NCBI GenBank assembly: GCA_964531275.1
Contig: CAZHDZ010000006.1
Coordinates: 14,963-78,962 of the forward strand
Direction of reading: 5' to 3'
DNA from: an uncultured Gammaproteobacteria bacterium
Lineage (GTDB): Bacteria > Patescibacteriota > Microgenomatia > Levybacterales > GWA1-39-11
Length of the DNA: 64,000 nucleotides
The notes beneath the pieces were generated by a model. That model did no database searches, was not told the origin of the DNA, and saw nothing but the letters and a program-made list of their open reading frames with translations. Shown in pieces: positions 10,809 to 41,943 of the stretch (positions are counted from its first letter, which is position 1; every line of letters begins with the position of its first letter). A program made the translations under genes and the position numbers.

Positions 10809-10809
10809 T

Positions 10810-15276: not shown

Positions 15277-15279
15277 AAT

Positions 15280-16166: not shown

Positions 16167-16175
16167 ACTGCTCAT

Positions 16176-16874: not shown

Positions 16875-17058
16875 GATTCTTAAATCTTTTTCTGATTTAT
16901 ATTTTTTTCTACAATCAGAAATAAAATCCTCACAAATTGCTATTGAAATCATGAAAAGAAAAATTAATATGAGATATTTTTTGGTTAATTTGAAGCAAAA
17001 GTTGCTCTTAAATTACCTATTGACAAGGTTTTTCAAATATGATTATCTTAATACAGAT

Positions 17059-17532: not shown

Positions 17533-17619
17533 TTCTTCACTCATTGACTTCCCTATAAATTAAGTGTTAGCATTTTATTAGTAGTTTAATTCGCTTAGCT
17601 AAGAATCTTACAATTCTAT

Positions 17620-18012
17620 ATGGATAAGAAGATACTCATTGCGGAAGATGATGAATTCCTAAGACAACTATATTCTGATGTCTTAAAAGGCGAAGGCTAT
17701 ACTGTCGATGTTGCCATAGATGGAGACGATGCCCTTCGCAAAATACAGGCAGGTGGATGGGATCTAGTGCTACTTGATATCATAATGCCCAAGCTCAGTG
17801 GTCTTGATGTTATGAGGAAGGCAAAGGAATCTCCTCAACCTTTAAATCAAAATAAATGCATAGTATTTCTCACCAACTTAGATAAGGGGGAAGAGATTAA
17901 GGAAGCATTAATTTTGGGAAATGGTTATCTCATAAAAAGTCAGATTACTCCAGGTGATTTGGTTAAAGAAGTTCAATTATATCTTACGCCTCAAGGACAA
18001 ACCGTTAATTAA
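17620..18012 (+). CDS. Single-domain CheY-like response regulator receiver
   Basis: MDKKILIAEDDEFLRQLY...DLVLLDIIMPKLSGLDVM... Confidence 0.85.
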   Translation: MDKKILIAEDDEFLRQLYSDVLKGEGYTVDVAIDGDDALRKIQAGGWDLVLLDIIMPKLSGLDVMRKAKESPQPLNQNKCIVFLTNLDKGEEIKEALILGNGYLIKSQITPGDLVKEVQLYLTPQGQTVN

Positions 18013-24433: not shown

Positions 24434-25297
24434 TTAAAACCAACGTTTCTTTTTTGATTCTTCTGCAAATTCCTCAAGAAGCTCTTTTTGTCTTGAGGAT
24501 AATTTGCCAGGCACTTCAACTTGAACTCTTACATAGTGATCTCCATGAGTAGAAACATTAACATGCTTTACACCCTTCCCCTTAATCCTTATAAGAGTCC
24601 CTGGTTGAGTTCCTTGTGGTATTTTAAGCTTTACTTTTCCAGCAACTGTCTCGATTTCCTCAATGCCACCGAGGGCCGCCTCGTGCATTGCCACTTTAAG
24701 ATCTGAGATGATATCATACCCTTCTCTTCTGAATTTAGAGCTTGAAGCAACAGAAATTAAAATATCAAAATCATTAAATTGAATTCTTGATCCTTCATTT
24801 ACTCCTGCCGGTACTTTAATGTCTTTCTTAGTTCCATCCAAAGATACCGTTTTTGTAGTTCCTTTTACTGCTTCCATAAAATCAATTGTTAAAGAATATG
24901 CAGGCTTTCGTCTTCCAAAAGGGGAAGCACCGCCAAAAAATTGCTCAAAAATATCAAATGGATCTGTCCCACCAAAATCAAAACCCTGGCCACCGTTACT
25001 TGTATATGAATAACTAAAAGGTCCCTGCTGGCCACCAAATCCTCCAAAGGGCCCACCCGCTCCCCCACGTCCTCCATTCTCAAATGAAGCGGACCCGAAT
25101 TGATCATATTGTTGTCTTTTCTGAGGATTTCCAAGAATTTCGTATGCTTGATTTATTTCTTTAAATTTTTCCTCTGCTTCTTTGGATTTATTTTTATCAG
25201 GATGATACTCAACAGCAAGCTTTCTGTATGCCTTTTTAAGCTCTTCCGCAGTCGCGGACTTAGTAACTCCTAACACTTTGTATAGGTCTGAATTCAT
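24434..25297 (-). CDS. DnaJ-family co-chaperone lacking the zinc-finger CxxCxGxG repeats (class B, CbpA/DnaJ-like): J-domain, G/F-rich region, C-terminal substrate-binding domains
   Basis: YKVLGV...HPDKN J-domain with the HPD motif. A GGFGG-rich linker. No CxxC repeats. Confidence 0.85.
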
Positions 25298-25358: not shown

Positions 25359-27056
25359 TCATCTTGGGGAACAGATGAGAGGGCAAATCTGAATACTTTT
25401 TCCGTTTTTTGTACATTTTGGATCAGGAACGCAACTAAAATACTGGTCGGGAGTTGGAGTTGGTGTTCCGACTTGCTTAAATGCACCCAAGGTTGGAGTT
25501 GGTGTGGGAAATAACACGGTTGGCAATGGAGCAAACGTTGCTGTAGGGCTTATTGTAAGACTAGGAACAATTGTCGTTGAGACCGATGGCGTGAGGGTTG
25601 ATGCCACTGTTGGTAATGCTGTTAAAGAACCGCAGGCTTGCATTGCCTTATACACATTAAGTCGCGGACCAATTGGCCTATCAGTAGATATTGGTTCTGC
25701 ACCTTGAATGAGACAGTCTTTTACTTGAGATGCGGAAAGAGACGGTTTTGCTGCCAAAAGAAGCGCAGCTGCTCCTGCAACATGAGGACTTGCCATACTT
25801 GTTCCTTGACTGGATTTATATCCTCCACCTGGCCATGTCGATATAATTCCTGTCCCCGGTGCTGAAATTCCAACAAATGACCCAAAATTAGAAAAGGATG
25901 CCCTTGAGTCAGTGGGTGTAGTTGCGCCAACAGCTAGAGCCCCACTGCATGATGCCGGACTATAGAGACCAGCATCCTCAGCAACGTGCGTGGTTGGGTG
26001 GCCATTTCCAGCAGCAACAACAACCAAAACACCCTTTGAAACAGCGTATGTTATTGCCGTATCATACTGGCTACCCTGTCTACATGGAGTCCTGCCACCC
26101 AGACTCATATTAATAACTTTTGCTCCATTATCTGCTGCGTAACTGATAGCCTGTGTCGTTGCAGTTGTGTCGCAGCTTGCAGAAGAACCGTATGGGACAC
26201 ATACCTTTAATGGCATTATCTTAACCGTCCAATTAACACCCGTCACCCCAACAGAATTATTACCAACTGCACCTACTGTTCCTGCAACATGCGTCCCATG
26301 TCCCACATCATCAGCTGGGTTTGAGTCTCCATTGGCAAAGTCGTACCCAGCTACCGCATTTGCAGATAAATCGGCATGGGAAGCTTCAATTCCCGAATCA
26401 ATTACAGCAACAACAACACTTCCAGAACCTTTTGTCATATCCCATGCAAGCGGCGCTTGAATTTTTTCCATTCCCCAAAGCTGACTATAATTAGGATCGT
26501 TTGGAACTGCAAAAAGCTCAAACTGGTTATTGGGCTCTGATGAGTAAAAGAAAGGGACGCTTGCAAGTTCTTGCTGCACATTAATAGCATCTACTCCTTG
26601 ACGTAATTTTAATGTATAAAATCCACGAAGCATTATGTCATCGGTACTATAAACTTTGACGAATGATACTACCCCAATCTTTTTAAAGACATCATTAATT
26701 TCGGAAAGCTTTTCTTGGGGCTTCTTTTCTTTAAGAATACTGTCTTGTGCCGAATTCCATGTATTCACAGTCTTGCCTAAAATATTTCTATCATTCTTAT
26801 TAAATTCTTCTTCCTTTTTCATTAAATCTGAAGGAATATAGTCATCTCTAAATCGAACCACTATTTCATTGGGGACATATCTTTCCGTTGCAGGAAATGC
26901 CTCATATTTTTTTGAATAGACTTCATTTTTTTTTGCGGATTTCTGAAAAACGGTTGCAAAAAAATATAGAGTAATCAGAACAAATACAAAAAGAGTGATT
27001 ACTATAAAAAGTACTCTTGGAGATTTTAAGTTATTGATTGAGAATTGCTTTAACAT
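25359..27056 (-). CDS. Subtilisin-like serine protease (peptidase S8) with N-terminal TM anchor, prodomain-like region and C-terminal Pro/Thr-rich, Cys-containing tail
   Basis: Catalytic triad motifs VAVIDSGI (Asp), HGTHVAGT (His), GTSMASPHVAG (Ser). Confidence 0.9.
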   Translation of the reverse strand: MLKQFSINNLKSPRVLFIVITLFVFVLITLYFFATVFQKSAKKNEVYSKKYEAFPATERYVPNEIVVRFRDDYIPSDLMKKEEEFNKNDRNILGKTVNTWNSAQDSILKEKKPQEKLSEINDVFKKIGVVSFVKVYSTDDIMLRGFYTLKLRQGVDAINVQQELASVPFFYSSEPNNQFELFAVPNDPNYSQLWGMEKIQAPLAWDMTKGSGSVVVAVIDSGIEASHADLSANAVAGYDFANGDSNPADDVGHGTHVAGTVGAVGNNSVGVTGVNWTVKIMPLKVCVPYGSSASCDTTATTQAISYAADNGAKVINMSLGGRTPCRQGSQYDTAITYAVSKGVLVVVAAGNGHPTTHVAEDAGLYSPASCSGALAVGATTPTDSRASFSNFGSFVGISAPGTGIISTWPGGGYKSSQGTSMASPHVAGAAALLLAAKPSLSASQVKDCLIQGAEPISTDRPIGPRLNVYKAMQACGSLTALPTVASTLTPSVSTTIVPSLTISPTATFAPLPTVLFPTPTPTLGAFKQVGTPTPTPDQYFSCVPDPKCTKNGKSIQICPLICSPR

Positions 27057-27576
27057 TTGGCTCTACTCCTTGTACTTCAGGAATTGTATAAATTACCTTT
27101 GAAGCATCCTCAACATTCGTTCCTTTTTTAAAGGTGAGTGTATAAAAACTATTGAGAGTTGGGTCTGTGGTTTTTTCATAAATATGTGTCTCACTCGTTA
27201 CTCCAACACTTTCTAGGATTTTTTTAATCTCTGCTCTTCTTTTTGGATCTAATTCTTCCGGAGTTTTCCCTAATTGGTACGAAATCACTAATTCATCTTC
27301 AACATATAGTTCTTTATCTGGGAATGGGAGAAGTGTAGGCTTTGCAATTGGCACAGGAGTAGGAGTGATAGTCGTTTTGTTTGAGACGCCAATAGCGACA
27401 CCTACCGCACCCAAGAGCAGCAGAACAAATGCTATTGTAAGAATAATGACAATCTTTTTTTTATAGAAAGGTTTTGACTCCTGCGGCAACTGAGATTGAA
27501 TAGGTGCTTGAACCGGTGATTGGACAGTAGCGTTTGGATCCATATAGTACTTATGCTGGCTGCATTTGGGTGCCAT
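27031..27576 (-). CDS. Membrane-anchored protein resembling a free-standing subtilisin prodomain (inhibitor I9-like), paralogous to the N-terminal region of the adjacent subtilase
   Basis: ELVISYQLGKTPEE...FYTLTFKKGTNVEDASKVIYTIPEVQGVEPN aligns by eye with the subtilase N-terminus EIVVRFRDDYIPSD...FYTLKLRQGVDAINVQQELASVPFFYSSEPN. N-terminal TM. 26-nt overlap with the subtilase gene. Confidence 0.5.
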   Translation of the reverse strand: MAPKCSQHKYYMDPNATVQSPVQAPIQSQLPQESKPFYKKKIVIILTIAFVLLLLGAVGVAIGVSNKTTITPTPVPIAKPTLLPFPDKELYVEDELVISYQLGKTPEELDPKRRAEIKKILESVGVTSETHIYEKTTDPTLNSFYTLTFKKGTNVEDASKVIYTIPEVQGVEPNVKAILNQ

Positions 27577-30436
27577 CTGCTCCTATGGTTGGCATTGGAG
27601 TTGTAGGGGTAGCAGAAGGCTGGGTTTGATCTGCAGTAAATGGATCAAATGGCGCTGGTGCCATCGGATTTTGGATTGGAGTGTACGGATCAACTACCAT
27701 ACCATTTGATTGGGAAGGAGGTGCTACTGGAGCCTGTTGAACCGCTTGACCTTGGGGAACTTGTTGGGACGCACCGTCAGGAGAAGGTGGCATTCCATTT
27801 GTTGGTGGCTGTGGTGCTTGTCCTTGCGGCTCTGCTCCCGGAGCGACTGGCACTGGAGTAGTCTTTACAAATAGATACTCTCCTTTTGCAGTGTCATAAT
27901 CAACCTTTATAGTATCCCCAGCTAAAAATTCTTGACCGATAATTTTTAAACTGATAGGGTTTTCGATTACATTTTGTATAAGGCGTCTTAATGGACGAGC
28001 TCCATAAATTGGGTCAAAGCCCTCATCACCAAGCTTTTCAAGGGCAAGATCAGAAATTTCCAATACAAATCCCTGCTCCTTTAATAACTTCGCAGTTTTA
28101 CCAATATTTATTTTTGCAATAAGCTTCATGTCCTGCTTCCTTAACGGCTTAAAAATAACAACTCCATCAAAACGATTTACCAGTTCTGGTCTAAAGAATT
28201 TAGTCAACTCATCCATAAGCTTCTTTGAAAGATCAGCAAATACTTTTTGCGCTGCTGGATCTTGATTTGGAGTCTTCGGAATTGCAGCAACTGCCCCATT
28301 TGCACTGGCGATTGTAGGGGTAGTAGTTGGAACAGCCTGATTTTGAGTTGAAGCAGACGCCCCAGTGTCGCCTGGGAGTCCTGGTGTAGCAGGAGTCGCA
28401 CCTTGAGCCTTTTCACTTGCAGTCTTCGCGTTAGTCAATGCTTCCTGAATCAAATTGCTTCCAATATTTGAAGTGGCTACAACAATAGTATTCTTAAAAG
28501 AAATTGTATTTCCCTTATTATCAGTTAGCCTTCCATCTTCAAGAAGTTGAAGTAATATATTAAATACATCAGGATGTGCTTTTTCGACTTCATCTAGTAG
28601 GACTATTGAGTATGGTTTTGCGCGTACGGCTTCAGTAAGTTGTCCCCCTTCTTCGTACCCTACATATCCTGGAGGTGCACCAATAAGCTTTGCCACCTCA
28701 TGCTTTTCCATGTATTCAGACATGTCCAATCTAACCATGGCATCATCACGACCAAACAATATCTCGGCTAAGGTCTTTGCCAGTTCTGTTTTTCCAACAC
28801 CCGTTGGTCCAAGGAAAATAAATGAAGCAATTGGCCTGTTGGCTGCTGCCAATCCAATTCTTCCACGCCTAACGGCCTCCGACACTGCGGCAACAGCTTC
28901 TTCTTGATCAATAAGTCTCTGGTGTATCAGGTCTTCAAGTTGCAAAAGCTTTTTCCCCTCGTCTTCCGTAAGTTTTGTTATAGGAATACCTGTCCAATCC
29001 GAAACAACCTTCTCAATATCAGCTCTTGATACATTTCCGTCGGTCCTTTGGCCTTGTGCAAGCTTCAACTTTACTTCAGCAGCTGCTTCATCCAATAAAT
29101 CAATTGCTTTGTCTGGCAAGAAACGCTCCCCAACATATTTCTTAGACAGTGTCACTGAGAATTTGATTGCATCCGGAGTAAGCACTACATTATGATATTT
29201 TTCGTATTTCTCCTTTAAGACATCAAGCATTTTCATAGCTGTCTCTTCATCTGGCTCATCAACTATTACTGACTGAAAACGCCTCTGAAAAGCCTTGTCT
29301 TTTTCAAAATACTTTCTATATTCTGCAGTGGTTGTTGTGCCAATTAGTTGCAATTGTCCACGAGCCAAGTAAGGCTTTATTATGTTAGATGCGTCCATTG
29401 CGCCTCCTCCTTCTTCCCCAGCGCCAATGAGCGTATGTATTTCATCAATGAAAAGCAGAATCTTTCCGCTTGAAATCTGCACCTCTTTAATGACATTTTT
29501 AAGTCTTTCTTCAAACTCTCCTCTATGTGAAGCTCCGGCGATTAAAGCTGCTAGATCAAGCTCTATAATTTGCTTATCCTTCAGCTGGTCTGGCACATTT
29601 CCTTTAACAATATTTTCAGATAAGCCTTCAATTACAGCTGTTTTTCCAACCCCTGCTTCACCAATAATGATTGGGTTATTCTTAGTGCGGCGCAGTAATA
29701 TATGAGTAAGCCTTTCTATTTCTTTATCACGCCCAATAACAGGATCTAATTTTCCGTCTCTTGCCTCAGCAGTTAGATCTATTCCAAATTGCTCCAATAC
29801 GGTCTTTTTACCTGCAGCTTGAAAAGTAGGGTTTTTTGAAAGATTCTTTTCAAGTCCTTCTTTTTGTACACCTTTAGTGGTGAGATATTGAGCTGTGCTC
29901 TCAGAATTAAATAAGGAGAGCAGAATATCTTCCGGGGTAATAAAGCTTGACCCTCTATTCTTAGCCATAGTAAATGCATCATCAAAAATCTTTTGAGAAG
30001 TAGGCGAAAGAGTGGGTATTCCATCTGAAGTTCCCGGTGTCTGCTTTTGCTGTAGCTCTCGTGCAAGATCTCCTGCATTCACCGAAAACTCCTGCATAGT
30101 CTTATAAATCTCTTTGTCATATAGCAAACCAAGAAGAACGATATCTGGGTTAATTTGCGAAAGTCTGGCTTTTTTCGCTTCACTTTGGGCTTGCTGGAGA
30201 ACTTGATTGGCTCGCGCATCTAGATGAGTAAGGCTTTCGACATTCTGTCTTTTAACAGGATCCATACCACCGGGAGAAGTAGGCGTTTCTACGACCTGCT
30301 GCGGCACAGGGGCTATGCCAATACCCCCCTGCATACCTTGATTTGGCATGCCTTGCTGATCAGACATACTAGGGTCCATTACGCCATCTTCACCGTATTT
30401 TTTATTACTGAACAAATTTCCAAACATATTACTCAT
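27551..30436 (-). CDS. clpC: Hsp100/Clp-family double-AAA+ ATPase (ClpC/ClpA-type: Clp_N repeats, both AAA modules intact, no M-domain), with Q/M/P-rich N- and C-terminal extensions and a ~55-aa low-complexity insert at the position of the ClpP-binding loop
   Basis: GEAGVGKTA / LLFIDEIH in D1; GPTGVGKTE / VLLDEVEKAH / ATSNIG / GARPLRR in D2. D1 and D2 are nearly contiguous. The insert follows the sensor-1 ATSNIG of D2. Confidence 0.85.
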   Translation of the reverse strand: MSNMFGNLFSNKKYGEDGVMDPSMSDQQGMPNQGMQGGIGIAPVPQQVVETPTSPGGMDPVKRQNVESLTHLDARANQVLQQAQSEAKKARLSQINPDIVLLGLLYDKEIYKTMQEFSVNAGDLARELQQKQTPGTSDGIPTLSPTSQKIFDDAFTMAKNRGSSFITPEDILLSLFNSESTAQYLTTKGVQKEGLEKNLSKNPTFQAAGKKTVLEQFGIDLTAEARDGKLDPVIGRDKEIERLTHILLRRTKNNPIIIGEAGVGKTAVIEGLSENIVKGNVPDQLKDKQIIELDLAALIAGASHRGEFEERLKNVIKEVQISSGKILLFIDEIHTLIGAGEEGGGAMDASNIIKPYLARGQLQLIGTTTTAEYRKYFEKDKAFQRRFQSVIVDEPDEETAMKMLDVLKEKYEKYHNVVLTPDAIKFSVTLSKKYVGERFLPDKAIDLLDEAAAEVKLKLAQGQRTDGNVSRADIEKVVSDWTGIPITKLTEDEGKKLLQLEDLIHQRLIDQEEAVAAVSEAVRRGRIGLAAANRPIASFIFLGPTGVGKTELAKTLAEILFGRDDAMVRLDMSEYMEKHEVAKLIGAPPGYVGYEEGGQLTEAVRAKPYSIVLLDEVEKAHPDVFNILLQLLEDGRLTDNKGNTISFKNTIVVATSNIGSNLIQEALTNAKTASEKAQGATPATPGLPGDTGASASTQNQAVPTTTPTIASANGAVAAIPKTPNQDPAAQKVFADLSKKLMDELTKFFRPELVNRFDGVVIFKPLRKQDMKLIAKINIGKTAKLLKEQGFVLEISDLALEKLGDEGFDPIYGARPLRRLIQNVIENPISLKIIGQEFLAGDTIKVDYDTAKGEYLFVKTTPVPVAPGAEPQGQAPQPPTNGMPPSPDGASQQVPQGQAVQQAPVAPPSQSNGMVVDPYTPIQNPMAPAPFDPFTADQTQPSATPTTPMPTIGADGTQMQPA

Positions 30437-30455
30437 TATTCATTATATGCAGATA

Positions 30456-32756
30456 CTAATTTGAAACGCCAGGAGGTCCACCTTGCCCCTCATCTTTTTT
30501 CTCCGGTGTTTCCTCTTCTGGAAGCTCTCTTTGCATTGTCATTTCAGCATGGCCCTCTTGGGTCTTGTTGTCAGCTCTATCAACCATTGTGTCATCCTCT
30601 TCCTTCTTACTATCAACGGACGTCATCACCGATTTTGCAGCTTCAAGTTTTGCCTTCAAGTAGGATACGACCTCAGTCTTAGAGAATCCTCCCAGGAGTA
30701 AAAATGGCAATATATTAGCCACTCTTTCCATTCCCTTATCTACATTCTCTTGGCTTTCTGAGCTAAGGAGATTGATCGTTTCCGTAATATTTTCAATGTC
30801 TGTCTGAAGGAAGGTATGCTTATCGGTTGGTATTCCATTCGCTCCGATTGGCGTCTCAATATTTTGATAATTTTCCTGCCACATTTTCTTAACATCCTCG
30901 TATTCTTCTATGCTCACTTGCTGAACTTGGTTTGTTTGAGGGAGTGAAACATCTTTAATTCCTGCTGTTGCTTGTGGTTTTTGACCAGGAATAACAGCTC
31001 TTGTCTTACTATTAACCTGCTCAGAGACACGAGAGGCCGACAATACATTGCCCGCAAGCTTATCACCTTGTTTTTGCTGAGAGATAAGTTTTTCTTTTAT
31101 TGTTGTAAATTTCTCCCTATCCATAGATCCCATAACGGTTGTAGGTTTTGAGATCTTCTCTAATGTTTCGTGGAAATTATTTACTTCGGTCTTTGAGACA
31201 GTGTCATGCTTTGTCATGGATGTTTCGTATCGAGCAATATCTCTCATCTTTGGAATTGAAAGATTAGCAAGCTTTAGCACATCCCTTGTCTCTCTTACTG
31301 TCTGCAAACTTGAGAGGGAGGCTCTTTCAATAGATGAAGTAGATGAAGATGTCTGGCTAGTGTTAGTGTTGGTGTTCGTATTCGTGTTGGTATTAGTATT
31401 TGTGTTGAGCTTCGAATTAAATATTGAACTTGAATTCGAATTTACCTTTGAAATTGTGTTTGTAGCCGAATTTGAGATGGTCCTCCCGGCAGGCATCTCC
31501 ATTGATCTTTTATTAAAGAATGGCAAAGCTTTTGCCATACCAAAAGGTGCAGGAACAGGCGGCGGAGAACCCGGAGGTGGGGGAGGATTTTGATAGGCCC
31601 GATTAAACCAGGAGTTATTCGTTATCTTCTTAACAACAGGGTTTTCAGAAATTGATACAGAGCTAAGATAATCAAGAAATATCTGCAACAAAAGGAATGG
31701 CAATAGAATAACAACCCAAAGCATGAGAAGTGCTACTACATATAACGCAAAGGTGTCGCTCAGATTTACAGAATTTGCTATATCTATTTGTTGTCCTGGG
31801 CCTCCAAGAAGAATATTGATTGCTGTGGGATAAGTCTGCTTTCCCCCTACGCTTGAGAAGTCAAAATACATAGGAATCCCACTTCTCCACACATTAACTA
31901 AGCCATGCAGAAATAATGCAAAAAGGGGTGCATAAAAAAGCCATCTGAAAAATTCCCCAATCCAAATTTTTGCTGTATTTCTAACCGGCCGGAAAAATAA
32001 TAATAAAGGAAACACTGGAGATACAATTAAGAAAAACCACAAGATAATTTTTCTAATAAGAAGAATTCCGGTCATCACATAGTAGGTAACAGCAGTAAGT
32101 TTAACCAACAGCAGAGATATAAATGCAGACTCATCAAACTCAATTCCAGGAATTCTATAACCAATAAAATTCTCGTAATCAAATGCGATGTAAAGAAGAT
32201 CTTCCGGTCCAATATTTTTTGTCACATTCGGATCTTCTAGGGAAGGCACCGATAAGAAGAATCCCTGGACAACGTCAGTTGCCTGATACATAAAGCGTAT
32301 AAGCCCATATGAAAAATAGATAAGAATAACTATTCCTATAAAAAGTGGGATGAATTTCATGACAGTTAGGTTCTGCCCGCGGGTTATTATCATTACAAAG
32401 GCAGCTCCAAGCACAAAAAGGCCCAGAAGGGCAAATACAACATAGGTAACCCTGCTCCAAAATTCTTGAATTGGATCTTGAGCGCCATTTGCGGGCAGCG
32501 TTATCCAACGGTAATTTTCTTCGGAGAGAGTCCACTTCAAAAAATCATTTGCACGTGTTGCAGTCTTACCAACAAAGGTAACCTCTTGATCTTTTACGAA
32601 GCTTGGTTGAGCACTTGTTGATGATGCTGCTATTTGAGCATCGGGAGAAAGTATGATTGAAGATTGCGCATTAGAAGTCCCAACGTAGCCTAAAAATCCC
32701 ATCGCAAAAAAAGCGATTACCAAAGCTATTTTAATCTTGGACAGTTTTTTTTGCAT
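30456..32756 (-). CDS. Large polytopic membrane protein (signal peptide, ~80-aa extracytoplasmic domain, 6 TM, ~400-aa low-complexity C-terminal region with an (NT)8 repeat and a PPPPPGSPPP stretch); topology resembles VirB6/TrbL-family proteins
   Basis: Hydrophobicity layout from the translation. The VirB6-like assignment rests on architecture only, not on a recognised sequence motif. Confidence 0.45.
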   Translation of the reverse strand: MQKKLSKIKIALVIAFFAMGFLGYVGTSNAQSSIILSPDAQIAASSTSAQPSFVKDQEVTFVGKTATRANDFLKWTLSEENYRWITLPANGAQDPIQEFWSRVTYVVFALLGLFVLGAAFVMIITRGQNLTVMKFIPLFIGIVILIYFSYGLIRFMYQATDVVQGFFLSVPSLEDPNVTKNIGPEDLLYIAFDYENFIGYRIPGIEFDESAFISLLLVKLTAVTYYVMTGILLIRKIILWFFLIVSPVFPLLLFFRPVRNTAKIWIGEFFRWLFYAPLFALFLHGLVNVWRSGIPMYFDFSSVGGKQTYPTAINILLGGPGQQIDIANSVNLSDTFALYVVALLMLWVVILLPFLLLQIFLDYLSSVSISENPVVKKITNNSWFNRAYQNPPPPPGSPPPVPAPFGMAKALPFFNKRSMEMPAGRTISNSATNTISKVNSNSSSIFNSKLNTNTNTNTNTNTNTNTSQTSSSTSSIERASLSSLQTVRETRDVLKLANLSIPKMRDIARYETSMTKHDTVSKTEVNNFHETLEKISKPTTVMGSMDREKFTTIKEKLISQQKQGDKLAGNVLSASRVSEQVNSKTRAVIPGQKPQATAGIKDVSLPQTNQVQQVSIEEYEDVKKMWQENYQNIETPIGANGIPTDKHTFLQTDIENITETINLLSSESQENVDKGMERVANILPFLLLGGFSKTEVVSYLKAKLEAAKSVMTSVDSKKEEDDTMVDRADNKTQEGHAEMTMQRELPEEETPEKKDEGQGGPPGVSN
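31358..31408 (-). repeat. Short tandem GT-rich repeat encoding (Asn-Thr)8 within the 766-aa membrane protein
   Basis: Plus-strand tgttagtgttggtgttcgtattcgtgttggtattagtatttgtgtt; translated on the minus strand as NTNTNTNTNTNTNTNT. Confidence 0.6.
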
Positions 32757-32759
32757 AGG

Positions 32760-33074
32760 CTACGAAAAACCAGGTATTTTCAAGATATTTCCAGCGATTA
32801 CAGATATAAAAACAAAGCCGAAAATAGCAAGAAGAATTCCTATAATTGCGTATGTTATATAAGACTTGCCTTTCTGTACGCTCATTGGGTCTCCTCTTGA
32901 AAGTAACAGGTGATAACCTCCAATAATGAGAAACAGGAGGCCAACCAAACCTATGAGCCCAAGCCCCCATCCATAGAATGAAGTGACAAATCCTACAGGA
33001 TTGTTGGGAAGACATCCAAAGTCTGTCTTTATAGATAATGCTGGATCACAGATTTCCCCTAGCGTTGAAGCCAT
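32760..33074 (-). CDS. 104-aa 2-TM miniprotein: Cys-containing N-region, TM1, short charged loop (SRGDPMSVQKGKS), TM2, short tail; VirB2/TrbC pilin-like architecture
   Basis: Translation. The layout parallels mature VirB2/TrbC pilins. 3-nt spacing to the downstream VirB6-like gene. Confidence 0.4.
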   Translation of the reverse strand: MASTLGEICDPALSIKTDFGCLPNNPVGFVTSFYGWGLGLIGLVGLLFLIIGGYHLLLSRGDPMSVQKGKSYITYAIIGILLAIFGFVFISVIAGNILKIPGFS

Positions 33075-33142
33075 ACAACATTAATAGTAGCATCAATCGG
33101 ACAGATAAAACAACACGTTTTGCAAAATTTACTCTGTAGAAT

Positions 33143-35242
33143 TTACTCTATTACACTTCCCCAAACAACTGCCGTAAAGTCCTTTCGGACTAGAGGACTG
33201 AACTGAATCTTTGTAGGTACAATTTCAGATGCGCCTTGTAGTTTTTTTGCGTAGAAGATGTGAGACATAAATGCTCTTGGCTGAGGTGAAACACTCACAG
33301 AAAGCAATTCTTTTACCTTTTCCTGAGGCAATGTGCTGAAGAATATATAGGGTGAATCTGACAACTCACCACCAAAGAAATCTACTATATCCTCTACCTC
33401 CCGAGTGTTAAAGCCTAAGCTATACGCATAGTCTGCAATCCCCTTTCGAAGCTCTTTTTGAGATAGTACAACTCCAGAAGTAGGGGTTGATACGCTTCCG
33501 CGAGGAAAATCATAATCAATTTTTTTATACACACCATCTGCAAAACCTAGGTCTCCATTACTATTTGCTTCAAAATTCCATGAATTATTAGAAAGGCTTG
33601 GCACCGCAGAATCTCTACTTATGGGAGTTACCGGAGAGATGCTAACCTTTTTCTTATCCGCACTATAGACATAAATTGGGCAAGCTTCACATGCTTCATA
33701 ATTGGGGTATCCTTTCTTTTCCCATTCCTCTTCACATTCTGAACGAGGATTCTTGCGTACACGCTTTGGCTCTACAGGAACAAAAGTTCCAAGCTTAAGC
33801 TGCCTTGTCATCGTTGTTAGTTCATCAACGAGCTTTTTATTTCTTTCGATTCCTATTTTTTCTTGAGGTAACTTGGGCATAACAGATATAAATTCAAAGC
33901 TATTTGATTTATCAGGCGTTATAGTTGATATCAGTGATTTAGTCGACAAATTATAAATCTTAATTGAACTAAGCTTATTCTTATAACCGGATGGTCCTAT
34001 GCCATTACCAGTCCCCAAATTACCTCGAAATTCAATTTCATTTCCAACAAGTACAGTCTTATCTCCTGAAGGCAACTCCCCCACACTGAGTATTCTCATT
34101 GCATTTTCTGCCTTACCAACGATTGTTTGCTTGGTAAATTTTCCATCTTTATCTTTGTGAATAAGCTGTATCTCTGAGAAGGCAAGAGTCGAAGCACCAC
34201 CAACAGAATCTATCTTATATACTTCAGCTACAATTTCCATCTCCCCATCGGGACTCCCCGATACATACACAGGGTGTTTGTAATGCTCGCCTTGATCTCC
34301 AGGTGCTACGGTTACGACATTTTTCGATTCGAGATCATAAGTCTTTACGATATTTGTATTTACAATCTGGTCGCGGGTGCTATCAACATCCCCAGTTGAG
34401 GGCAGCTTGGAATTGCGACTATCAAACGAAGAAAAGAGAAGGTATTGCTGCTTGAATAAATAAGGATTACTGTTGTAGGTATTTAAAGGCAATATAACGT
34501 TCAGTGACTCATCTTTAAAGCCATAGTACAGTGCATAGCTACTCGGAATTATTGAATCAAAATACACGTTACCTGCATTTGTAATTAAAGAGGGCAATGT
34601 AATTTGAATACCTACGTCTGCTTGTTGCTCTGTCAGCCTGACAGGAGAAAGTGTGCCTTTGCTTTTTACTGCTTCTTCTAAATTAGCCTTATAAACTCGG
34701 TAGAAGTCTCTGTCGTGAGAATAACCATTTTCATCAGGGGCCTTTATTTCATACCATGCAACCCATTTATTGTCTTGCGAAAGCACATACCTATCGATTT
34801 TGTAGTCATCTTCAGGAGTATAAATTTTTCTAGTTGTACCATCTGGGCCACCTGAACTTGCGGCAATTTCCCTAAGTCCAAAAGCTCCACCGGCATCCCC
34901 ATAGTCAGTATCAGCAACATAGAATATATTTTTTCCGTCAGAAAGAGGGGTTGCAAATTTTATCTTGCTCTCAAGTAGAGTGACTGGTGAATTATTGACT
35001 CCAGAATCATTTACTGCAGAAATCGAAGTTGAATCTTCGCCCATTTCACCGTAAATAATGGTATTTACCGAGGAACGATCATCTTTAAGATCAGTCTGAT
35101 TTTCCTTTGGAATCTCTTTTCTAATGGTCCCCGGCTTTCCATTTTGGTTAGCTACACCAACAAAACCCAAGCCCAAGGCAATGACTGCAATAACAAGAAT
35201 AAGGGAGGATTTATTTTGGGACAGCTTCTCAACGCTTACCAT
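33143..35242 (-). CDS. Large (699 aa) N-terminally anchored extracytoplasmic protein, beta-rich, with a Cys cluster (CEEEWEKKGYPNYEACEACP); function unknown
   Basis: ORF track. Single N-terminal TM LILVIAVIALGLGFVGV. Confidence 0.5.
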   Translation of the reverse strand: MVSVEKLSQNKSSLILVIAVIALGLGFVGVANQNGKPGTIRKEIPKENQTDLKDDRSSVNTIIYGEMGEDSTSISAVNDSGVNNSPVTLLESKIKFATPLSDGKNIFYVADTDYGDAGGAFGLREIAASSGGPDGTTRKIYTPEDDYKIDRYVLSQDNKWVAWYEIKAPDENGYSHDRDFYRVYKANLEEAVKSKGTLSPVRLTEQQADVGIQITLPSLITNAGNVYFDSIIPSSYALYYGFKDESLNVILPLNTYNSNPYLFKQQYLLFSSFDSRNSKLPSTGDVDSTRDQIVNTNIVKTYDLESKNVVTVAPGDQGEHYKHPVYVSGSPDGEMEIVAEVYKIDSVGGASTLAFSEIQLIHKDKDGKFTKQTIVGKAENAMRILSVGELPSGDKTVLVGNEIEFRGNLGTGNGIGPSGYKNKLSSIKIYNLSTKSLISTITPDKSNSFEFISVMPKLPQEKIGIERNKKLVDELTTMTRQLKLGTFVPVEPKRVRKNPRSECEEEWEKKGYPNYEACEACPIYVYSADKKKVSISPVTPISRDSAVPSLSNNSWNFEANSNGDLGFADGVYKKIDYDFPRGSVSTPTSGVVLSQKELRKGIADYAYSLGFNTREVEDIVDFFGGELSDSPYIFFSTLPQEKVKELLSVSVSPQPRAFMSHIFYAKKLQGASEIVPTKIQFSPLVRKDFTAVVWGSVIE

Positions 35243-35246
35243 AGCA

Positions 35247-35729
35247 TTAGCTCTTCTTTACTATATTAATTTCAATCTTATCTAAATCTTTAAGAAGAAT
35301 CCATCGGTAAAAAGCCGATACTTTTTTATCATTCTTTTTTATCGTTATTTCATAACCATCAAACTCACGTATGCCACCTATCTGAGTGTCGCTGAAAGTA
35401 GTCCCCATAGTGTCAAAGAAATCTCCAAGAAAGAATGGAAACGGGATTGGATATTCCATATGTATAAGACCTGTTGCATCATGCGTATGTAGGGGGTGCA
35501 TACATGCGGTTGTTAATCCTATATTTGCCGGTACTAAAACGTCTACACCGTCTTGAATAATTTTAAGTTGTGTATGAGTATGCGTCGGACTATTATCAAT
35601 ATGCTCAACACACTGCATAAAAGCCAACTTTCTGAAGTGAAAAAATAGTATCGCAAAAATCAAAACCCCAAGGAAAAAATAAACGACAATCAGGACAACT
35701 TTACTACTAACACGATTTTTTCTAGCCAC
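35247..35729 (-). CDS. 160-aa N-terminally anchored protein with His-rich motifs (HTHTQ, CMHPLHTHD)
   Basis: ORF track. One TM. Immediately downstream of dnaK with a 4-nt gap to the next gene. Confidence 0.45.
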   Translation of the reverse strand: MARKNRVSSKVVLIVVYFFLGVLIFAILFFHFRKLAFMQCVEHIDNSPTHTHTQLKIIQDGVDVLVPANIGLTTACMHPLHTHDATGLIHMEYPIPFPFFLGDFFDTMGTTFSDTQIGGIREFDGYEITIKKNDKKVSAFYRWILLKDLDKIEINIVKKS

Positions 35730-35765: not shown

Positions 35766-37685
35766 TTAATTAACGACTTGACCTTCTTCGGCATCATCTT
35801 TCTTTGTCGTATCATCATTAGACTCTTCTGAGGAATCATCTTTCTTGTCTTCTGTATCCGTATTTTCACCCGACGAAGCAGAATCTTCTGGCTTTTTAGC
35901 ATACATTTTTTCGCCCACCTTTGAAATTTTTTCAGAAAGATCTTTTGTCTTTGCCTCAATTTCTTCCTTATCTTCACCGTCTTTTACCTTTTTAAGATTC
36001 TCAATCGCTTCCTCAACGTCTTTCTTGTCAGATTCTTCAACTTTACCCTCCATATCTTTCATAGATTTTTCAGCAGTAAATATTAAGTTGTCTGCACTAT
36101 TCTTAACTTCAATTAGCTCCTTCTTTTTGGCATCTTCCTCCGCATGAGCTTCAGCATCTTGAGTCATCTTCTTAATCTCATCGTCAGTAAGACCGGTGGA
36201 GCCAGTAATTTTAATGCTCTGCTCTTTACCCGTTGCCTTATCTTGTGCTTTTACTGATAGGATTCCAGATGCATCGATGTCAAAGGTTACTTCAACCTGA
36301 GGGACACCTCTTGGTGCTGGAGGAATTCCATCAAGGATAAATCTTCCCAAAGACTTATTATCATTTGCCATTGGACGCTCTCCCTGAACAACATTAATTT
36401 CAACCTGTGTCTGATTGTCGGCGGCTGTTGAAAATACTTGAGACTTCTTGCTTGGAATAGTTGTATTTTTTTCAATAAGAGGAGTTGCTACTCCACCCAT
36501 TGTTTCGATACCAAGAGTTAATGGAGTAACATCCAAAAGCAAAACGTCTTTCACTTCTCCGCCTAATACTCCCGCCTGAACAGCAGCTCCAACAGCTACG
36601 ACTTCGTCAGGATTTACGCTTTTATTTGGTTCTTTTCCGAAGAATTTAGAAACTTCTTCTATAATCTTTGGCATTCTTGTCATTCCTCCAACAAGAATTA
36701 CTTCATCGATACCTGATTTTTCTACTTTTGCATCTTTAAGTGCCTGCTTTACAGGACCAAATGATTTTTCAATAAGTGGGGCAACAAGTCCCTCAAGCTT
36801 AGATCTGGAGATTTTAACGGTTAGATGCAGTGGTCCTGAAGGGCCTTGAGTTATAAATGGTTGGTTAATTTCAGCCTCCATCGAGCTTGATAACTCAATT
36901 TTTGCTTTTTCTGCTGACTCCTTAAGTCGCTGAAGAGCTTGAGGATCAGTGCGAAGATCTATACCATTCTCTTTCTTAAATTCATCGGCCAAATAATCTA
37001 TGAGTACCTGATCAAAATCATCTCCTCCAAGATGGGTGTCTCCATTTGTTGCCTTAACTTCATACACACCGTCTCCAAGCTCAAGGACAGAGATATCGAA
37101 TGTTCCTCCGCCAAGATCATAAACAGCAACTGTATGTGCATGTTTTTTATCAAGACCGTAAGCAAGAGCAGCGGCTGTTGGTTCATTTACGATTCTAAGC
37201 ACTTCAAGCCCGGCAATTTCTCCAGCCTGCTTTGTAGCTTGGCGCTGGGCATCATCAAAATAAGCAGGAACAGTAATAACCGCTTGCGTTACTTTATCTC
37301 CCAAATAATCCTCAGCATCCTTCTTAAGTTTTTGAAGAATTTGAGCTGATACCTCTTGAGGCGTGAAGGTTTTTCCATCTACTTCTACGACAGCCATTCC
37401 TTCACGTCCTGATGTAACTGTATAGGGAAGAAGCTTCATGTCTCTTTGGACAGATTCATCTTTCAACTTTCTCCCCATGAGTCTTTTGACGGAGAATATT
37501 ACCTTCTTTGGCTTAAGAACCATTTGTCTTTTTGCAACATCTCCCACAACCCTATCGATTGGATCAACGACTGAAGGGGTGGTATTTCTTCCTTCTGAAG
37601 AAAAGATAACCTTTGGAGATCCTCCCTCCATGACAGCCATACAAGAGTTTGTTGTTCCTAAATCTATACCTATAATTTTTCCCAT
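35766..37685 (-). CDS. dnaK: Molecular chaperone DnaK (Hsp70) with extended acidic C-terminal tail
   Basis: [21 protein letters not shown], and [11 protein letters not shown] signatures. Confidence 0.97.
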
Positions 37686-37697
37686 AATTTATTTAGT

Positions 37698-38201
37698 TTA
37701 TTTTTTGCCTCCGACTTTTACCTGCGCCGGTCTTATTAATTTTCCGTGCAAAGTAAATCCCGGACGTACTTCTTCTATTACTTCATCGCTATTTCCTTCT
37801 ACTACCTCTATCGCTTCCATCGTGTCTGCATTATATTTTGCACCAATAGTTGCGATCTTTTCAATACCATTCTCTTTTAAAATCTCAATAATTCTTGCAA
37901 TCGTTAATTTAACACTCTCGTCGTTAGTATACTTACCTGCCATCATCAATGTGTCAAAGGCCGGTAAGAGTGCTTCTATTAAATTCCTATTTGCAAACCT
38001 TATTGCGTCTAATCGCTCCTCACTGCTTCGTCTCTCTAAGTTTCTATAATCTGCAACTGCCCTCTTTAATTGATCAGTTAGTTCCTCTATCCTTTCGTCT
38101 TTCTCATCTTTTTCAATGACCTCTTCAACTTCCTCAACTATTTCCTCTTTTTTCTCTTCTTGTTTTAGATTTTTATCATTCATTTGCTTACCAATTTGCA
38201 A
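37698..38201 (-). CDS. grpE: Nucleotide exchange factor GrpE
   Basis: LKRAVADYRNLERRS and a C-terminal beta domain. Sits between hrcA and dnaK. Confidence 0.9.
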   Translation of the reverse strand: MQIGKQMNDKNLKQEEKKEEIVEEVEEVIEKDEKDERIEELTDQLKRAVADYRNLERRSSEERLDAIRFANRNLIEALLPAFDTLMMAGKYTNDESVKLTIARIIEILKENGIEKIATIGAKYNADTMEAIEVVEGNSDEVIEEVRPGFTLHGKLIRPAQVKVGGKK

Positions 38202-38910
38202 CTTCTTCTATTAAAGAGCCGTAGTACCTTACTAGTGGCACGATATTTTCATATCTTAACCTGGCAGGTCCAACAACGCCTATGGTTCCGTCCTGATTGC
38301 TTCTTGTATGAAATTTCGAAAAAACAAAACTATAAGGTCTAAATAATTCCAACTCTAAATCTTCCCCCAAAACTACAGCAAACTTTTCATTAATTCTTCC
38401 AAAAATTGTATCAAAATAATCTTGATTGTCCAATAGATTTAAAAGATTACGTGTTACATCAATGTCGTAAAACTCAGGCATATCAAGAATCTGTGAATAC
38501 CCGGCGCAGTAAAAGTCTCCACCCTTGCTAATTGCAACCGCTAATGTCCCGGTCTTTTCAGCTAGTCTATGAGTCGCAAGACGCATAAATTCTCCTTCTT
38601 TCTCTCTGACGTCCCAAATTTTTTCTTTTGCCTCTACCTCCTCAGCAACTGAAAGCTCTTTCTCTTTCATAAGCTCATTTACATATAGCTTAATTGCTTT
38701 AGATGTGGGAACACGACCAGCAGATGTGTGTGGCTTTCCAAGGTATCCTTTCTTAACCATTGCCGCCATTTCATTTCTGATCGTCGCAGGGCTTACACCG
38801 ACATCATATTTTTTTTCAAGGGTCTCTGAGCCAACTGGGTTGGCCGTATCTATATACTCTTTAACAATTTGTTTGAGTATTTCAATCTGTCTTTGTGTTA
38901 AATCATACAT
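38188..38910 (-). CDS. hrcA: Heat-inducible transcription repressor HrcA (short form)
   Basis: N-terminal winged-helix LTQRQIEILKQIVKEYIDTANPVGSETL is the classic HrcA start. Forms an operon with grpE-dnaK. Confidence 0.85.
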   Translation of the reverse strand: MYDLTQRQIEILKQIVKEYIDTANPVGSETLEKKYDVGVSPATIRNEMAAMVKKGYLGKPHTSAGRVPTSKAIKLYVNELMKEKELSVAEEVEAKEKIWDVREKEGEFMRLATHRLAEKTGTLAVAISKGGDFYCAGYSQILDMPEFYDIDVTRNLLNLLDNQDYFDTIFGRINEKFAVVLGEDLELELFRPYSFVFSKFHTRSNQDGTIGVVGPARLRYENIVPLVRYYGSLIEEVANW

Positions 38911-38959
38911 ATTTTAATGAATTCAATCTCATATACCCTGCTAAATGAAATATACGAGA

Positions 38960-38986
38960 TTAGCAATAATATATCACGAGTGCTAA
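38960..38986 (-). promoter_or_regulatory. CIRCE operator upstream of hrcA: on the gene strand TTAGCACTC-GTGATATAT-TATTGCTAA (left arm canonical, right arm 7/9)
   Basis: Read directly in the sequence, 50-75 nt upstream of the hrcA start. Confidence 0.6.
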
Positions 38987-39023
38987 GTTGTGTCAATACC
39001 GTGGTTTTATGTTACCCTAAAAT

Positions 39024-39360
39024 TATGAACGCCAGGAAGAAATTTGTACCATACTTATTCATTGCTATTCTGTCTTTAGTAGGACTCTTCCTATATATAC
39101 ATACGTTCACTCCTACTAAATCGATTGATTTTTTTGATGTCCAAATTATTCCTATTGCTCCTTTCCTCGCAATTTTTTTTCTTACCGTCTCATGTCTTTT
39201 TGCATTCATCCTAGCTAATTCGAGGCGTGGACTTTTGGTCGGACTTTTTGCAATAAGCTTTTTATTCCTTCAATACATTCGGTATAATAATGTTTTCTAT
39301 ACTATTCTTCTTATTCTGATTTTTACCCTTATCGAATTTTTATTCTGGAAAAAGAAGTGA
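39024..39360 (+). CDS. Small 3-TM membrane protein (start moved to Met at 39024, leaving the hrcA operator region intergenic)
   Basis: ORF 38917..39360. Hydrophobic segments. Confidence 0.4.
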
Positions 39361-41444: not shown

Positions 41445-41888
41445 TTAAGCAGATACTTTTGCCTTTTTTGATACTGTTATTTTCTTAGGCTCTTTCTTTT
41501 CTGCTTTCTTAAAAGCCAGTCTAAGAACTCCATTATCAAGCTCTGCCGTAGGCTCTTCATCTCTCACTACTCCTTCAGGAATTCTGAATGAGTAATTGAA
41601 TGAAGTTGCCATAGAGGACATGAAATATCTCTTCTTACTCTTTTCCTCGTCGCTTTGAGAAGAAGATGCACTAACTCTTACGATACCCTCTTCAAAAGTG
41701 ACATCAATTTTGTCCTCGGAGATTCCAGGAATTGCCGCTTCTGCAACAATTGCGTCTTCGGTCTCATAAAGATTGAGCCCCTGAGACATAAATTTTGAAA
41801 TACCTGGAATCGTTGGAAATTCAAAATCGTCATCTAACATACGATCCAAATTCCAAGGATTCCATCTTATTATTGCCATATTTTTCAC
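41445..41888 (-). CDS. Small heat shock protein, Hsp20/alpha-crystallin family
   Basis: Alpha-crystallin domain pattern: AEAAIPGISEDKIDVTFEEGIVRVSAS...GVLRLAFKK. Confidence 0.85.
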   Translation of the reverse strand: MKNMAIIRWNPWNLDRMLDDDFEFPTIPGISKFMSQGLNLYETEDAIVAEAAIPGISEDKIDVTFEEGIVRVSASSSQSDEEKSKKRYFMSSMATSFNYSFRIPEGVVRDEEPTAELDNGVLRLAFKKAEKKEPKKITVSKKAKVSA

Positions 41889-41916: not shown

Positions 41917-41943
41917 TTATCAGTATACAACCTCGAGTGCTAA
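41917..41943 (-). promoter_or_regulatory. CIRCE-like element upstream of hsp20: gene strand TTAGCACTC-GAGGTTGTA-TACTGATAA (left arm canonical, right arm 6/9)
   Basis: Read in the sequence in the hsp20 / PEGA divergent intergenic region. Confidence 0.4.

Follow-up and report, generated by a model that had tools for sequence, protein, structure and literature searches.

The window analyzed here, i.e., the whole stretch of 64,000 nucleotides (nt) from contig CAZHDZ010000006.1, carries on its minus strand a heat-shock operon in which genes for a VirB2-like protein, a VirB6-like protein and an atypical Hsp100 ATPase are nested. The G+C content of this 64-kb window is about 38%, and its genes are typical of the candidate phyla radiation (CPR)/Patescibacteria, comprising a type IV pilus PilB/PilC cluster, GroEL, MurJ and small metabolic islands. 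The nearest relatives of the proteins studied are found in metagenome-assembled genomes (MAGs) labelled Candidatus Levybacteria or Levyibacteriota. Many MAG records of these relatives are titled “uncultured Gammaproteobacteria bacterium,” a label which is almost certainly wrong, as can be seen from the protein similarity to Levybacteria-labelled MAGs and the common gene order. The order of genes on the minus strand is hrcA (38188-38910), grpE (37698-38201), dnaK (35766-37685), a gene for a 160-amino-acid (aa) membrane-anchored His/Cys protein (35247-35729), a gene for a 699-aa membrane-anchored extracytoplasmic protein (33143-35242), the gene for a 104-aa protein similar to VirB2 and to pilins of type IV secretion systems (T4SS; 32760-33074), the gene for a 766-aa VirB6/TrbL-like polytopic protein (30456-32756), the gene for the 961-aa Hsp100 (27551-30436), a gene for a 181-aa membrane-anchored stand-alone prodomain-like protein (27031-27576), a gene for a 565-aa membrane-anchored S8 subtilase (25359-27056), and finally dnaJ (24434-25297), which is of type II and encodes a J-domain and a C-terminal domain with no zinc finger match. 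The spacers from dnaK to dnaJ are, in gene order, +36, +4, +68, +3, +19, -26, -26, and +61 nt. The first three genes are open reading frames (ORFs) whose orthologs in the relatives match Pfam HrcA, GrpE and HSP70, respectively, and this head of the string (35766-38910) shows 53-97% identity to the relatives in tblastn. An initial annotation of the window had described the seven ORFs between dnaK and dnaJ as co-directional on the minus strand with a spacing of -26 to +68 nt, flanked by hrcA, grpE, dnaK, and dnaJ and preceded by a CIRCE-like operator, and this layout was reproduced in full.

The conservation of the gene neighborhood was surveyed with one genome per species at 80 loci including flanks of ±10 kb, which were annotated by tblastn, blastp and hidden Markov model (HMM) searches. 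Among the matches of the scan these 80 loci are the nearer ones, and 92 more distant loci were found in addition. The pilin-like gene is located directly 5′ of the VirB6-like gene in 71 of 75 loci with sufficient flank, an Hsp100 gene is found at most 2.5 kb 3′ of the VirB6-like gene in 55/60 loci, and dnaK is present at most 5 kb upstream in 51/55. The conserved core across Levybacteria-type Microgenomatia is a VirB2-like protein with two transmembrane (TM) helices, a VirB6-like polytopic protein, and an atypical Hsp100. Optional to this core are extracytoplasmic parts, namely a protein with the C-terminal domain of about 175 aa known from the 699-aa protein, and a protease cassette of the S8 or M4 type, in either case including a small partner that is anchored in the membrane. 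The locus is a composite, with the HrcA/CIRCE heat-shock operon hrcA-grpE-dnaK…dnaJ as the frame and the core module usually nested inside. The linkage of the membrane pair to an AAA+ Clp ATPase, which had been claimed before, thus holds across the 80 species, and it is the co-occurrence of the pilin-like, VirB6-like and Hsp100 genes, not that of all seven genes as a unit, which was borne out. Likewise, the proposed insertion of the module between dnaK and dnaJ is true for the window and about half of the relatives: dnaJ follows the Clp/protease genes, which is the arrangement of the window, at 19 loci, whereas at 16 loci it stands directly after dnaK and the module comes after dnaJ. A further arrangement was found at six loci (L042-L045, L054, and L056, one of them labelled Daviesbacteria), in which the flanks, as far as available, showed no dnaK and the Hsp100 gene is not 3′ of the VirB6-like gene. 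At L042-L044, the three of these loci with enough upstream flank, the Hsp100 gene precedes the VirB6-like gene by 3-4 kb and has the same orientation. The order at L042 is Hsp100, a T4SS_pilin gene, a divergent gene of the 699-aa family, two pilin genes, the orthologous pilin-like gene, and the VirB6-like gene, and the two added pilin genes score above the Pfam cut-off. This arrangement shows that the Hsp100 gene stays with the genes of the membrane pair, and not with dnaK, when both contexts separate.

As judged from its sequence, the 104-aa protein is VirB2/T4SS-pilin-like. Its scores fall just short of the cut-offs of two families, being 26.5 bits for PF18895 (T4SS_pilin; cut-off 26.6) and 39.6 bits for NF045849 (Mbov_0395 pilin-like conjugal transfer protein; cut-off 40). 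Paralogs adjoining the module at L042 pass the PF18895 cut-off with 31-34 bits and also match PF04956. The predicted layout consists of an N-terminal tail outside the cell with two conserved cysteines (aa 9 and 21), TM1, a basic cytoplasmic loop, TM2, and a C-terminal IPGF motif. Most orthologs have no signal peptide, but a few have a cleavable signal peptide ahead of the Cys-containing tail, which indicates that the tail is outside the cell. In an alignment of 79 orthologs the protein is very conserved, and the pattern of the family is TDFGC..P.DP.GF ... IPGF. The VirB2-like assignment of the initial annotation is thus supported by the threshold matches, the hairpin layout, and the paralogs above the cut-off.

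The 766-aa protein itself has no Pfam match, but 25 of 50 aligned homologs match TrbL/VirB6 (PF04610) with a best E-value of 8.3e-7. A motif of this family is WIGEFFRW. The AlphaFold model has a pLDDT of about 90 in the membrane part, and the top five PDB matches of the protein in Foldseek are TrwI/VirB6 of plasmid R388. With its predicted polytopic layout, the VirB6 helical fold in the model, and the profile match via its homologs, the protein shows the features that characterize VirB6/TrbL. Hydropathy analysis gives a signal peptide and five to six hydrophobic helices. The signal peptide is followed by an extracytoplasmic N-terminal region and about five TM helices at aa ~100-360. From hydropathy and the positive-inside rule we infer that the signal peptide is more likely followed by five than by six TM helices, and that the C-terminal tail, about 400 aa long, is cytoplasmic. 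Of the earlier description, the VirB6-like fold and profile, the signal peptide, the (NT)8 run, and the polyproline stretch can therefore be kept, whereas the six TM helices are better read as five. In VirB6 of Agrobacterium tumefaciens, as mapped, the N-terminus is outside and the C-terminus cytoplasmic, with about five TM helices and one large loop on the extracytoplasmic side. The tail of the 766-aa protein contains a polyproline run (aa 391-402; 31551-31586, minus strand), the (NT)8 run (aa 451-466; 31359-31406, minus strand), one copy of a helical repeat of about 53 aa (aa 516-568; 31053-31211, minus strand; KHDTVSKTEVNNFHETLEKISKPTTVMGSMDREKFTTIKEKLISQQKQGDKLA), and, at aa ~600-725, a terminal helical domain that is conserved.

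The 961-aa Hsp100 contains a Clp_N domain, two AAA+ modules and a D2-small domain. Its best profile match is ClpB (TIGR03346) with 890 bits against a cut-off of 1232, it reaches 711 bits on the ClpA profile against a cut-off of 993, and it falls under every curated family cut-off. Residues ~410-525 of E. coli ClpB have no counterpart in the alignment, as residues 459-466 of the window protein bridge ClpB positions 405 to 528. The resulting D1-D2 junction without M-domain (aa 459-469; 29030-29062, minus strand) is ClpA-like in the alignment to E. coli ClpB and ClpA, and the M-domain is absent from all 68 orthologs. The M-domain is the DnaK-binding element of ClpB. ClpC carries a short M-domain, and ClpA and ClpC dock ClpP via an [ILV]-G-[FL] tripeptide in the second nucleotide-binding domain (NBD2). 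No ClpP-docking tripeptide ([ILVM]G[FLIM]) is present at this site in the window Hsp100 or in any of 66 orthologs. Instead, the window protein has at the site of the ClpA IGL tripeptide (ClpB 729-735) a low-complexity insert rich in Ala, Pro, and Thr of about 66 aa (aa 666-733; 28238-28441, minus strand). The initial annotation had given this insert about 55 aa and a special meaning; its position at the ClpP-docking loop is correct, but among the orthologs the site holds from none to about 110 extra residues of unrelated low-complexity sequence, so that a function of the insert as replacement of the ClpP loop is ruled out and the site has to be regarded as variable filler. In the NBD1 pore loop (29501-29539, minus strand), the motif KYR is replaced by SHR according to the alignment, i.e., Tyr by His, and this replacement is found family-wide. 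Walker A and B of both NBDs, the NBD2 pore loop GYVGY, and GARPLRR are conserved across the family. All family members carry low-complexity N- and C-terminal tails, which are P/Q-rich in the window protein. With the double-ring AAA+ motifs, except for the NBD1 pore loop, the predicted 961-aa protein is a class I Hsp100, but neither a ClpC nor a ClpB. The designation “ClpC-type” given before is therefore not appropriate for a protein that has neither any M-domain nor the ClpP tripeptide.

The VirB6-like family and the Hsp100 family are further connected by the ~53-aa repeat. Besides its occurrence in the VirB6-like tail, the repeat is present in two to five copies in a C-terminal extension of the Hsp100 orthologs of seven species, with per-domain E-values down to ~1e-13, and one of these seven species is represented by a complete chromosome. 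The Clp-borne copies are positionally orthologous, most of them being 50-93% identical to the best Clp-borne match in another species, and share only 32-53% identity with the VirB6-like copies, which indicates that they are old and maintained. When the repeat profile was searched against 1.84 billion cluster representatives, 168 proteins were matched. Among the 145 new repeat proteins are 109 with the VirB6-like TM domain, two Clp ATPases, and 34 short or domain-less sequences, the latter of which are probably fragments. Apart from these domain-less sequences, the repeat is confined to the VirB6-like and Clp families. As the Clp proteins are cytoplasmic, the presence of the same repeat supports a cytoplasmic location of the VirB6-like tail as well. 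The number of repeats differs widely between species, and VirB6-like proteins with up to 25 copies reach 2000-2800 aa (P0217, 2790 aa).

All T4SS have an ATPase of the VirB4 family as their signature protein. VirB4 lies beneath VirB6 in canonical systems, and the R388 structure and work on VirB4 as a dislocase point to a presumed role in the extraction of the pilin from the membrane. Among the larger ORFs scanned in the window, no VirB4 or VirD4 Pfam match was found, and within ±10 kb in the 80 species there is neither a VirB4-like ATPase, including unannotated VirB4-like ORFs with a Walker A motif, nor any VirD4, which confirms and extends what had been noticed for the window alone. A complete T4SS, which is defined by a VirB4-family ATPase encoded together with the membrane components, is therefore not what the locus encodes. 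That the Hsp100 is linked to the membrane pair in both genomic contexts, shares a repeat with the VirB6-like protein, and has lost the M-domain as well as the ClpP loop, and that VirB4 is absent, suggests that the Hsp100 may act at the cytoplasmic face of a VirB6-like platform. We tentatively favor this coupled machine, i.e., an Hsp100 motor docked on a T4SS-derived VirB2/VirB6-like membrane platform, and give it a little less than an even chance. The VirB6-like protein and the VirB2-like subunit would form a T4SS-derived platform or conduit in the cytoplasmic membrane, and the cytoplasmic tail of the VirB6-like protein with its 1 to 25 copies of the ~53-aa repeat would recruit the Hsp100 hexamer or share a partner with it. 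The Hsp100 would then be the ATP-driven threading motor of the platform, taking the place of VirB4 in canonical systems, and could either extract the pilin-like subunit from the membrane or supply the conduit with unfolded polypeptide. Expression would be tied to the heat-shock regulon via read-through from the hrcA promoter. The more far-reaching idea of a VirB4-independent T4SS-derived machine with a dedicated Hsp100 motor, which would be a bacterial counterpart of the logic of the malarial export machinery PTEX and a new class of heat-shock co-regulated secretion or extraction system in CPR bacteria, appears rather unlikely to us. A stress-coupled export or surface remodelling, as proposed in the initial annotation, is a possible function of the module.

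Several points weigh against a coupling of the Hsp100 to the membrane pair. The arguments for it are genomic throughout. Gene order is strongly conserved in the one lineage from which nearly all of the 80 loci originate, and as even the unrelated gene metG keeps its place next to hrcA, synteny by itself carries little weight. Both the dnaK-free arrangement and the occurrence of the repeats in Clp proteins probably go back to a single evolutionary event each, and since the VirB6-like and Hsp100 genes are adjacent, a local duplication of repeat DNA would be mechanistically easy. The location of a clpB-type gene in a dnaK operon is ordinary, and these reduced genomes may encode no general disaggregase other than this Hsp100. 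Moreover, the cytoplasmic location of the VirB6-like tail is a predicted one, and the cytoplasmic loop of VirB2 is short and would thus be a poor handle for a threading motor.

The main alternative is that the genes are neighbors only, so that the Hsp100 would be a general heat-shock unfoldase or disaggregase, i.e., a degenerate ClpB, and the VirB2/VirB6-like pair would serve a VirB4-containing T4SS encoded elsewhere. The pair would provide this T4SS with its missing VirB6 and a conserved pilin, and would be located in the operon only because of the strong expression there. We consider this possible, albeit doubtful. The T4SS of Patescibacteria are MPF-FATA-like, centered on virB4 and often located near dnaA, and T4SS genes are essential in the one CPR lineage tested (2025 survey, PMC12102498). 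VirB2-like pilins are frequent in Patescibacteria, but in Microgenomatia VirB6 homologs are scarce and T4SS genes are scattered (PMC12102498). For Levybacteria GW2011_GWA1_37_16, the same named organism as that of locus L032, two VirB2, TrsD, VirB4, VirB1, and a type IV coupling protein (T4CP) are listed, but neither VirB6 nor the pilin of the present module (PMC12102498, supplementary table). This inventory indicates that a VirB4 machine is encoded elsewhere in these bacteria and that the pilin/VirB6-like pair is missed by HMM inventories. A separate virB4 locus at which no VirB6 was detected is in agreement with mere neighborhood, and so are the common placement of clpB with dnaK in bacteria, the conservation of gene order even for the unrelated metG, and the presence of CIRCE solely 5′ of hrcA. 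However, it would leave unexplained why the ~53-aa repeat, among the 1.84 billion representatives, is restricted to proteins with VirB6-like or Clp domains and to short sequences without any domain, and why the Hsp100 stays with the pilin and VirB6-like genes where the neighborhood contains no dnaK. Furthermore, a disaggregase coupled to DnaK would need the M-domain, which this Hsp100 does not have, and the virB4 locus of Levybacteria harbors three unannotated genes at the position where other Patescibacteria carry VirB6 and VirB3, so that it may have a VirB6 of its own.

In the heat-shock frame of the locus, a CIRCE-like inverted repeat, the operator of HrcA, is located at 38960-38986 just 5′ of hrcA. 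With the sequence TTAGCAATA-N9-GAGTGCTAA it has two mismatches to the CIRCE consensus used (TTAGCACTC-N9-GAGTGCTAA), and the best σ70-like promoter match (38996..38968, minus strand) overlaps it. A CIRCE-like repeat at a promoter-like site together with the presence of hrcA is what characterizes an HrcA/CIRCE regulon, and the string can be predicted to belong to one. The site 5′ of hrcA is kept in 43 of 56 related loci, and no CIRCE-like site was found 5′ of the pilin-like, VirB6-like, or Clp genes in the window and the related loci scanned. The scan for terminators gave 13 sites, with 13 expected from shuffled sequences, so that a terminator inside the string is neither shown nor excluded. 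An internal CIRCE or a clear terminator was thus considered and dropped, as no such CIRCE was found and the terminator-like sites are at the level expected from shuffling. A second CIRCE-like site with three mismatches is present at 41917-41943 just 5′ of an HSP20 gene (41445-41888, minus strand). Nine related loci have a further CIRCE-like site 2-5 kb 5′ of hrcA, and in the one locus where it was placed (L016, same contig as L001) it is just 5′ of an HSP20 gene, too. On the plus strand, the longest form of an ORF for a 147-aa membrane protein (38917-39360) overlaps the CIRCE/promoter region of hrcA, and its true start is probably an internal Met (MNARKKF…).

Another alternative is that the module serves envelope quality control. 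The Hsp100 would be tethered by the VirB6-like tail and extract or disaggregate heat-damaged membrane and surface proteins, and the anchored S8 or M4 protease would clear misfolded protein outside, giving a three-compartment heat-shock operon for cytosol, membrane, and cell surface. In favor of it, the module follows the CIRCE/HrcA promoter together with dnaK, grpE, and dnaJ in 51/55 loci, and a second membrane-anchored Clp-like ATPase follows in most relatives. The slot 3′ of the Hsp100 gene is occupied by an S8 subtilase in 25 species. In 11 species, among them the nearest relatives of the window, it contains a thermolysin-like enzyme of the M4 type together with a small partner protein of its own, and the use of non-orthologous extracytoplasmic proteases in one slot suggests selection for an activity rather than for one particular enzyme. 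At other loci, however, the slot holds a cohesin-domain protein or nothing, so that a protease is missing from it in some cases. In addition, VirB2 and VirB6 proteins occur in no known quality-control system, and the high conservation of the pilin-like protein is as expected of a structural subunit. In the dnaK-free arrangement the module is accompanied by a pilin array and no heat-shock genes are nearby. We therefore regard a role purely in quality control as distinctly unlikely.

The S8 subtilase of the window matches PF00082 with an E-value of 5.7e-58 and has a catalytic domain (aa 213-453) with D220, H253, N351, and S420. With D220, H253, and S420 in order and an N-terminal prodomain of its own (aa 54-176), it has the composition of an S8 protease with I9/fervidolysin-type prodomain, and a P/T-rich tail containing Cys follows. 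The 181-aa protein has a TM helix at aa 42-60 and a prodomain-like region at aa 85-174, reaches 24.2 bits on PF22148 (Fervidolysin_NPro-like), and aligns with aa 54-176 of the subtilase in BLASTP with an E-value of 4e-8. From these similarities it is a membrane-anchored extra paralog of the subtilase's own prodomain. The initial annotation was thus right in that a membrane-anchored subtilase and a separate prodomain-like protein are present, but the subtilase keeps its own prodomain and the 181-aa protein is a paralogous copy of it. At L007, where the neighboring proteins are 87-97% identical to those of the window, an M4 thermolysin-like enzyme and an unrelated 177-aa partner are encoded at 15181-17663. 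In comparison with positions 25359-27576 of the window this is a non-orthologous replacement of the protease in a fixed slot.

The 160-aa protein has one N-terminal TM helix, eight His and two Cys residues, no Pfam match and no family assignment. In the public record its gene is given as 123 aa (P0144, 100% identical over 77% of the ORF), which would remove the TM helix; as relatives of 158-160 aa align over the full length, the longer form with a GTG start is supported. In the one other lineage examined (L087-L089, three near-identical contigs), a homolog immediately follows a DsbA/thioredoxin gene in a cluster which further contains a CsoR-type repressor, DUF305, YibE_F, and a P-type ATPase. 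This context of DsbA and metal homeostasis hints at an extracytoplasmic metal or redox role. As a component of the module the 160-aa protein was rejected and has to be classified as a clade-specific accessory protein, since it is present in only four of 80 species and is elsewhere found beside DsbA and metal-homeostasis genes. The 699-aa protein is anchored and has a seven-bladed β-propeller (aa 60-456) and the conserved C-terminal domain of about 175 aa (aa 513-699; 33146-33706). In its family around the module the C-terminal domain recurs, but the propeller does not. At 21 loci the domain is encoded next to the module. The 160-aa and 699-aa genes are in the position of the window in only four of the 80 loci (L007, L012, L014, and L018), and at the 17 loci beyond these a protein of about 460 aa with the ~175-aa domain is encoded either next to the pilin array or in between the genes of the VirB6-like protein and the Hsp100. 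Many relatives have no 699-like gene within ±10 kb. The protein with the ~175-aa domain can thus be seen as a mobile but recurrent extracytoplasmic component.

An obligate apparatus of all seven genes, including the His-rich protein, the 699-aa protein, the free prodomain, and the subtilase, is very improbable: the tight spacing on one strand in the window and the recurrence of the 699-aa C-terminal domain speak for it, but the rarity of the 160-aa and 699-aa genes and the swapped protease slot show that the seven genes are not one conserved unit, the closest relative has an M4 protease with a different small partner, and the synteny survey has largely refuted what the initial annotation had assumed.

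Two further gene groups of the window have to be mentioned. A second Clp-like double-AAA+ protein of 790 aa is encoded at 5623-7995 (minus strand); it has N-terminal TM helices and no M-domain, and its NBD1 Walker B, as read by eye, is apparently degenerate. Its gene is preceded by that of a 118-aa membrane protein (7985-8341, minus strand). In relatives this pair is located directly 3′ of dnaJ or of the Clp/protease genes. Its distance of 16 kb in the window implies that a rearrangement or an insertion has taken place. Between dnaJ and this displaced Clp gene lies the type IV pilus cluster (9120-16874, plus strand), which encodes PilB (562 aa), PilC (356 aa), two N_methyl prepilin-like proteins, and a 978-aa protein without Pfam match.

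CPR/Patescibacteria live attached to other microbes, and their envelope machines are barely understood. The combination of a VirB2-like protein, a VirB6-like protein, and an Hsp100 was not found described in the literature searched, in agreement with the initial annotation, which had not recognized any described system in it. The sequence comparisons suggest a conserved and previously unrecorded module, in which T4SS-derived membrane proteins have been recruited to an Hsp100. It shares with the T4SS core of VirB2 and VirB6 (TrwL and TrwI of R388, DotA of Dot/Icm) the same VirB6 fold and the layout of the VirB2 hairpin, and VirB2 and VirB6 genes are often adjacent, as are those of the 104-aa and 766-aa proteins. 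It differs from the T4SS core in that no VirB4, TrsD, VirB3, VirB8, or T4CP is encoded within ±10 kb in the 80 species, that the neighboring ATPase is an Hsp100, that the VirB6-like protein has a cytoplasmic tail of 400 aa with a private repeat, and that most pilin orthologs have no signal peptide. The VirB6-like family is thus a clear VirB6-fold protein of Microgenomatia that was missed by HMM surveys, and it is linked to an Hsp100 and not to VirB4. With ClpB/Hsp104 and ClpC/ClpA the window Hsp100 has in common Clp_N, two AAA+ modules, the Walker motifs, GYVGY, D2-small, and the location in the dnaK operon, but it differs in the absent M-domain, the lack of the ClpP tripeptide, the exchange of Tyr by His in NBD1, and the long low-complexity tails. 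C-terminal repeats in common with the VirB6-like protein are present in only one clade of Hsp100 proteins of the window type. Even if the coupling is not physical, the locus still gives a new Hsp100 subfamily without M-domain and ClpP loop and with an SHR pore loop, a private repeat domain, and a heat-shock operon with exchangeable surface proteases.

ClpV/TssH of type VI and EccA of type VII secretion are also AAA+ ATPases of chaperone ancestry that are dedicated to, and encoded together with, a secretion apparatus. However, the window Hsp100 reaches only 690 bits on TssH against a cut-off of 885, no genes of type VI or type VII secretion systems are present, and ClpV recycles the sheath and does not dock on a VirB6-type membrane protein. 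In the anti-phage pair IetAS an AAA+ ATPase gene is likewise located beside an S8 peptidase gene, but the matches of the window are generic only (IetS 50 bits, IetA 19 bits, and NF042956 35 bits against a cut-off of 900), and the protease is swapped for M4 in relatives. Anti-phage defense (IetAS or the ClpB-like DolB and PDC-M37B) was therefore rejected, as PADLOC and NCBIfam gave only generic subtilase and ClpB-D2 matches far below the cut-offs.

As a working analogy only, the module can be compared with PTEX of Plasmodium, which consists of the HSP101 hexamer, the adaptor PTEX150, and the EXP2 pore, and in which a protease-free ClpB-type Hsp100 is placed on a membrane conduit (PMC8016102). 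EXP2 and PTEX150 are not homologous to the VirB6-like and VirB2-like proteins, HSP101 keeps its M-domain, and PTEX is experimentally established, whereas the coupling in the module is deduced from gene linkage and the shared repeat. In PTEX the attachment is mediated by a largely disordered or helical region of the adaptor, and unfolded protein is threaded through the conduit. Among Hsp100 proteins, HSP101 is described in a review as unique in its attachment to a membrane pore, EXP2 (PMC8016102). If the coupling is physical, the Hsp100 of the module would be the first bacterial ClpB-type unfoldase acting as motor of a membrane conduit, a role which is so far known only for HSP101 of the malaria PTEX.

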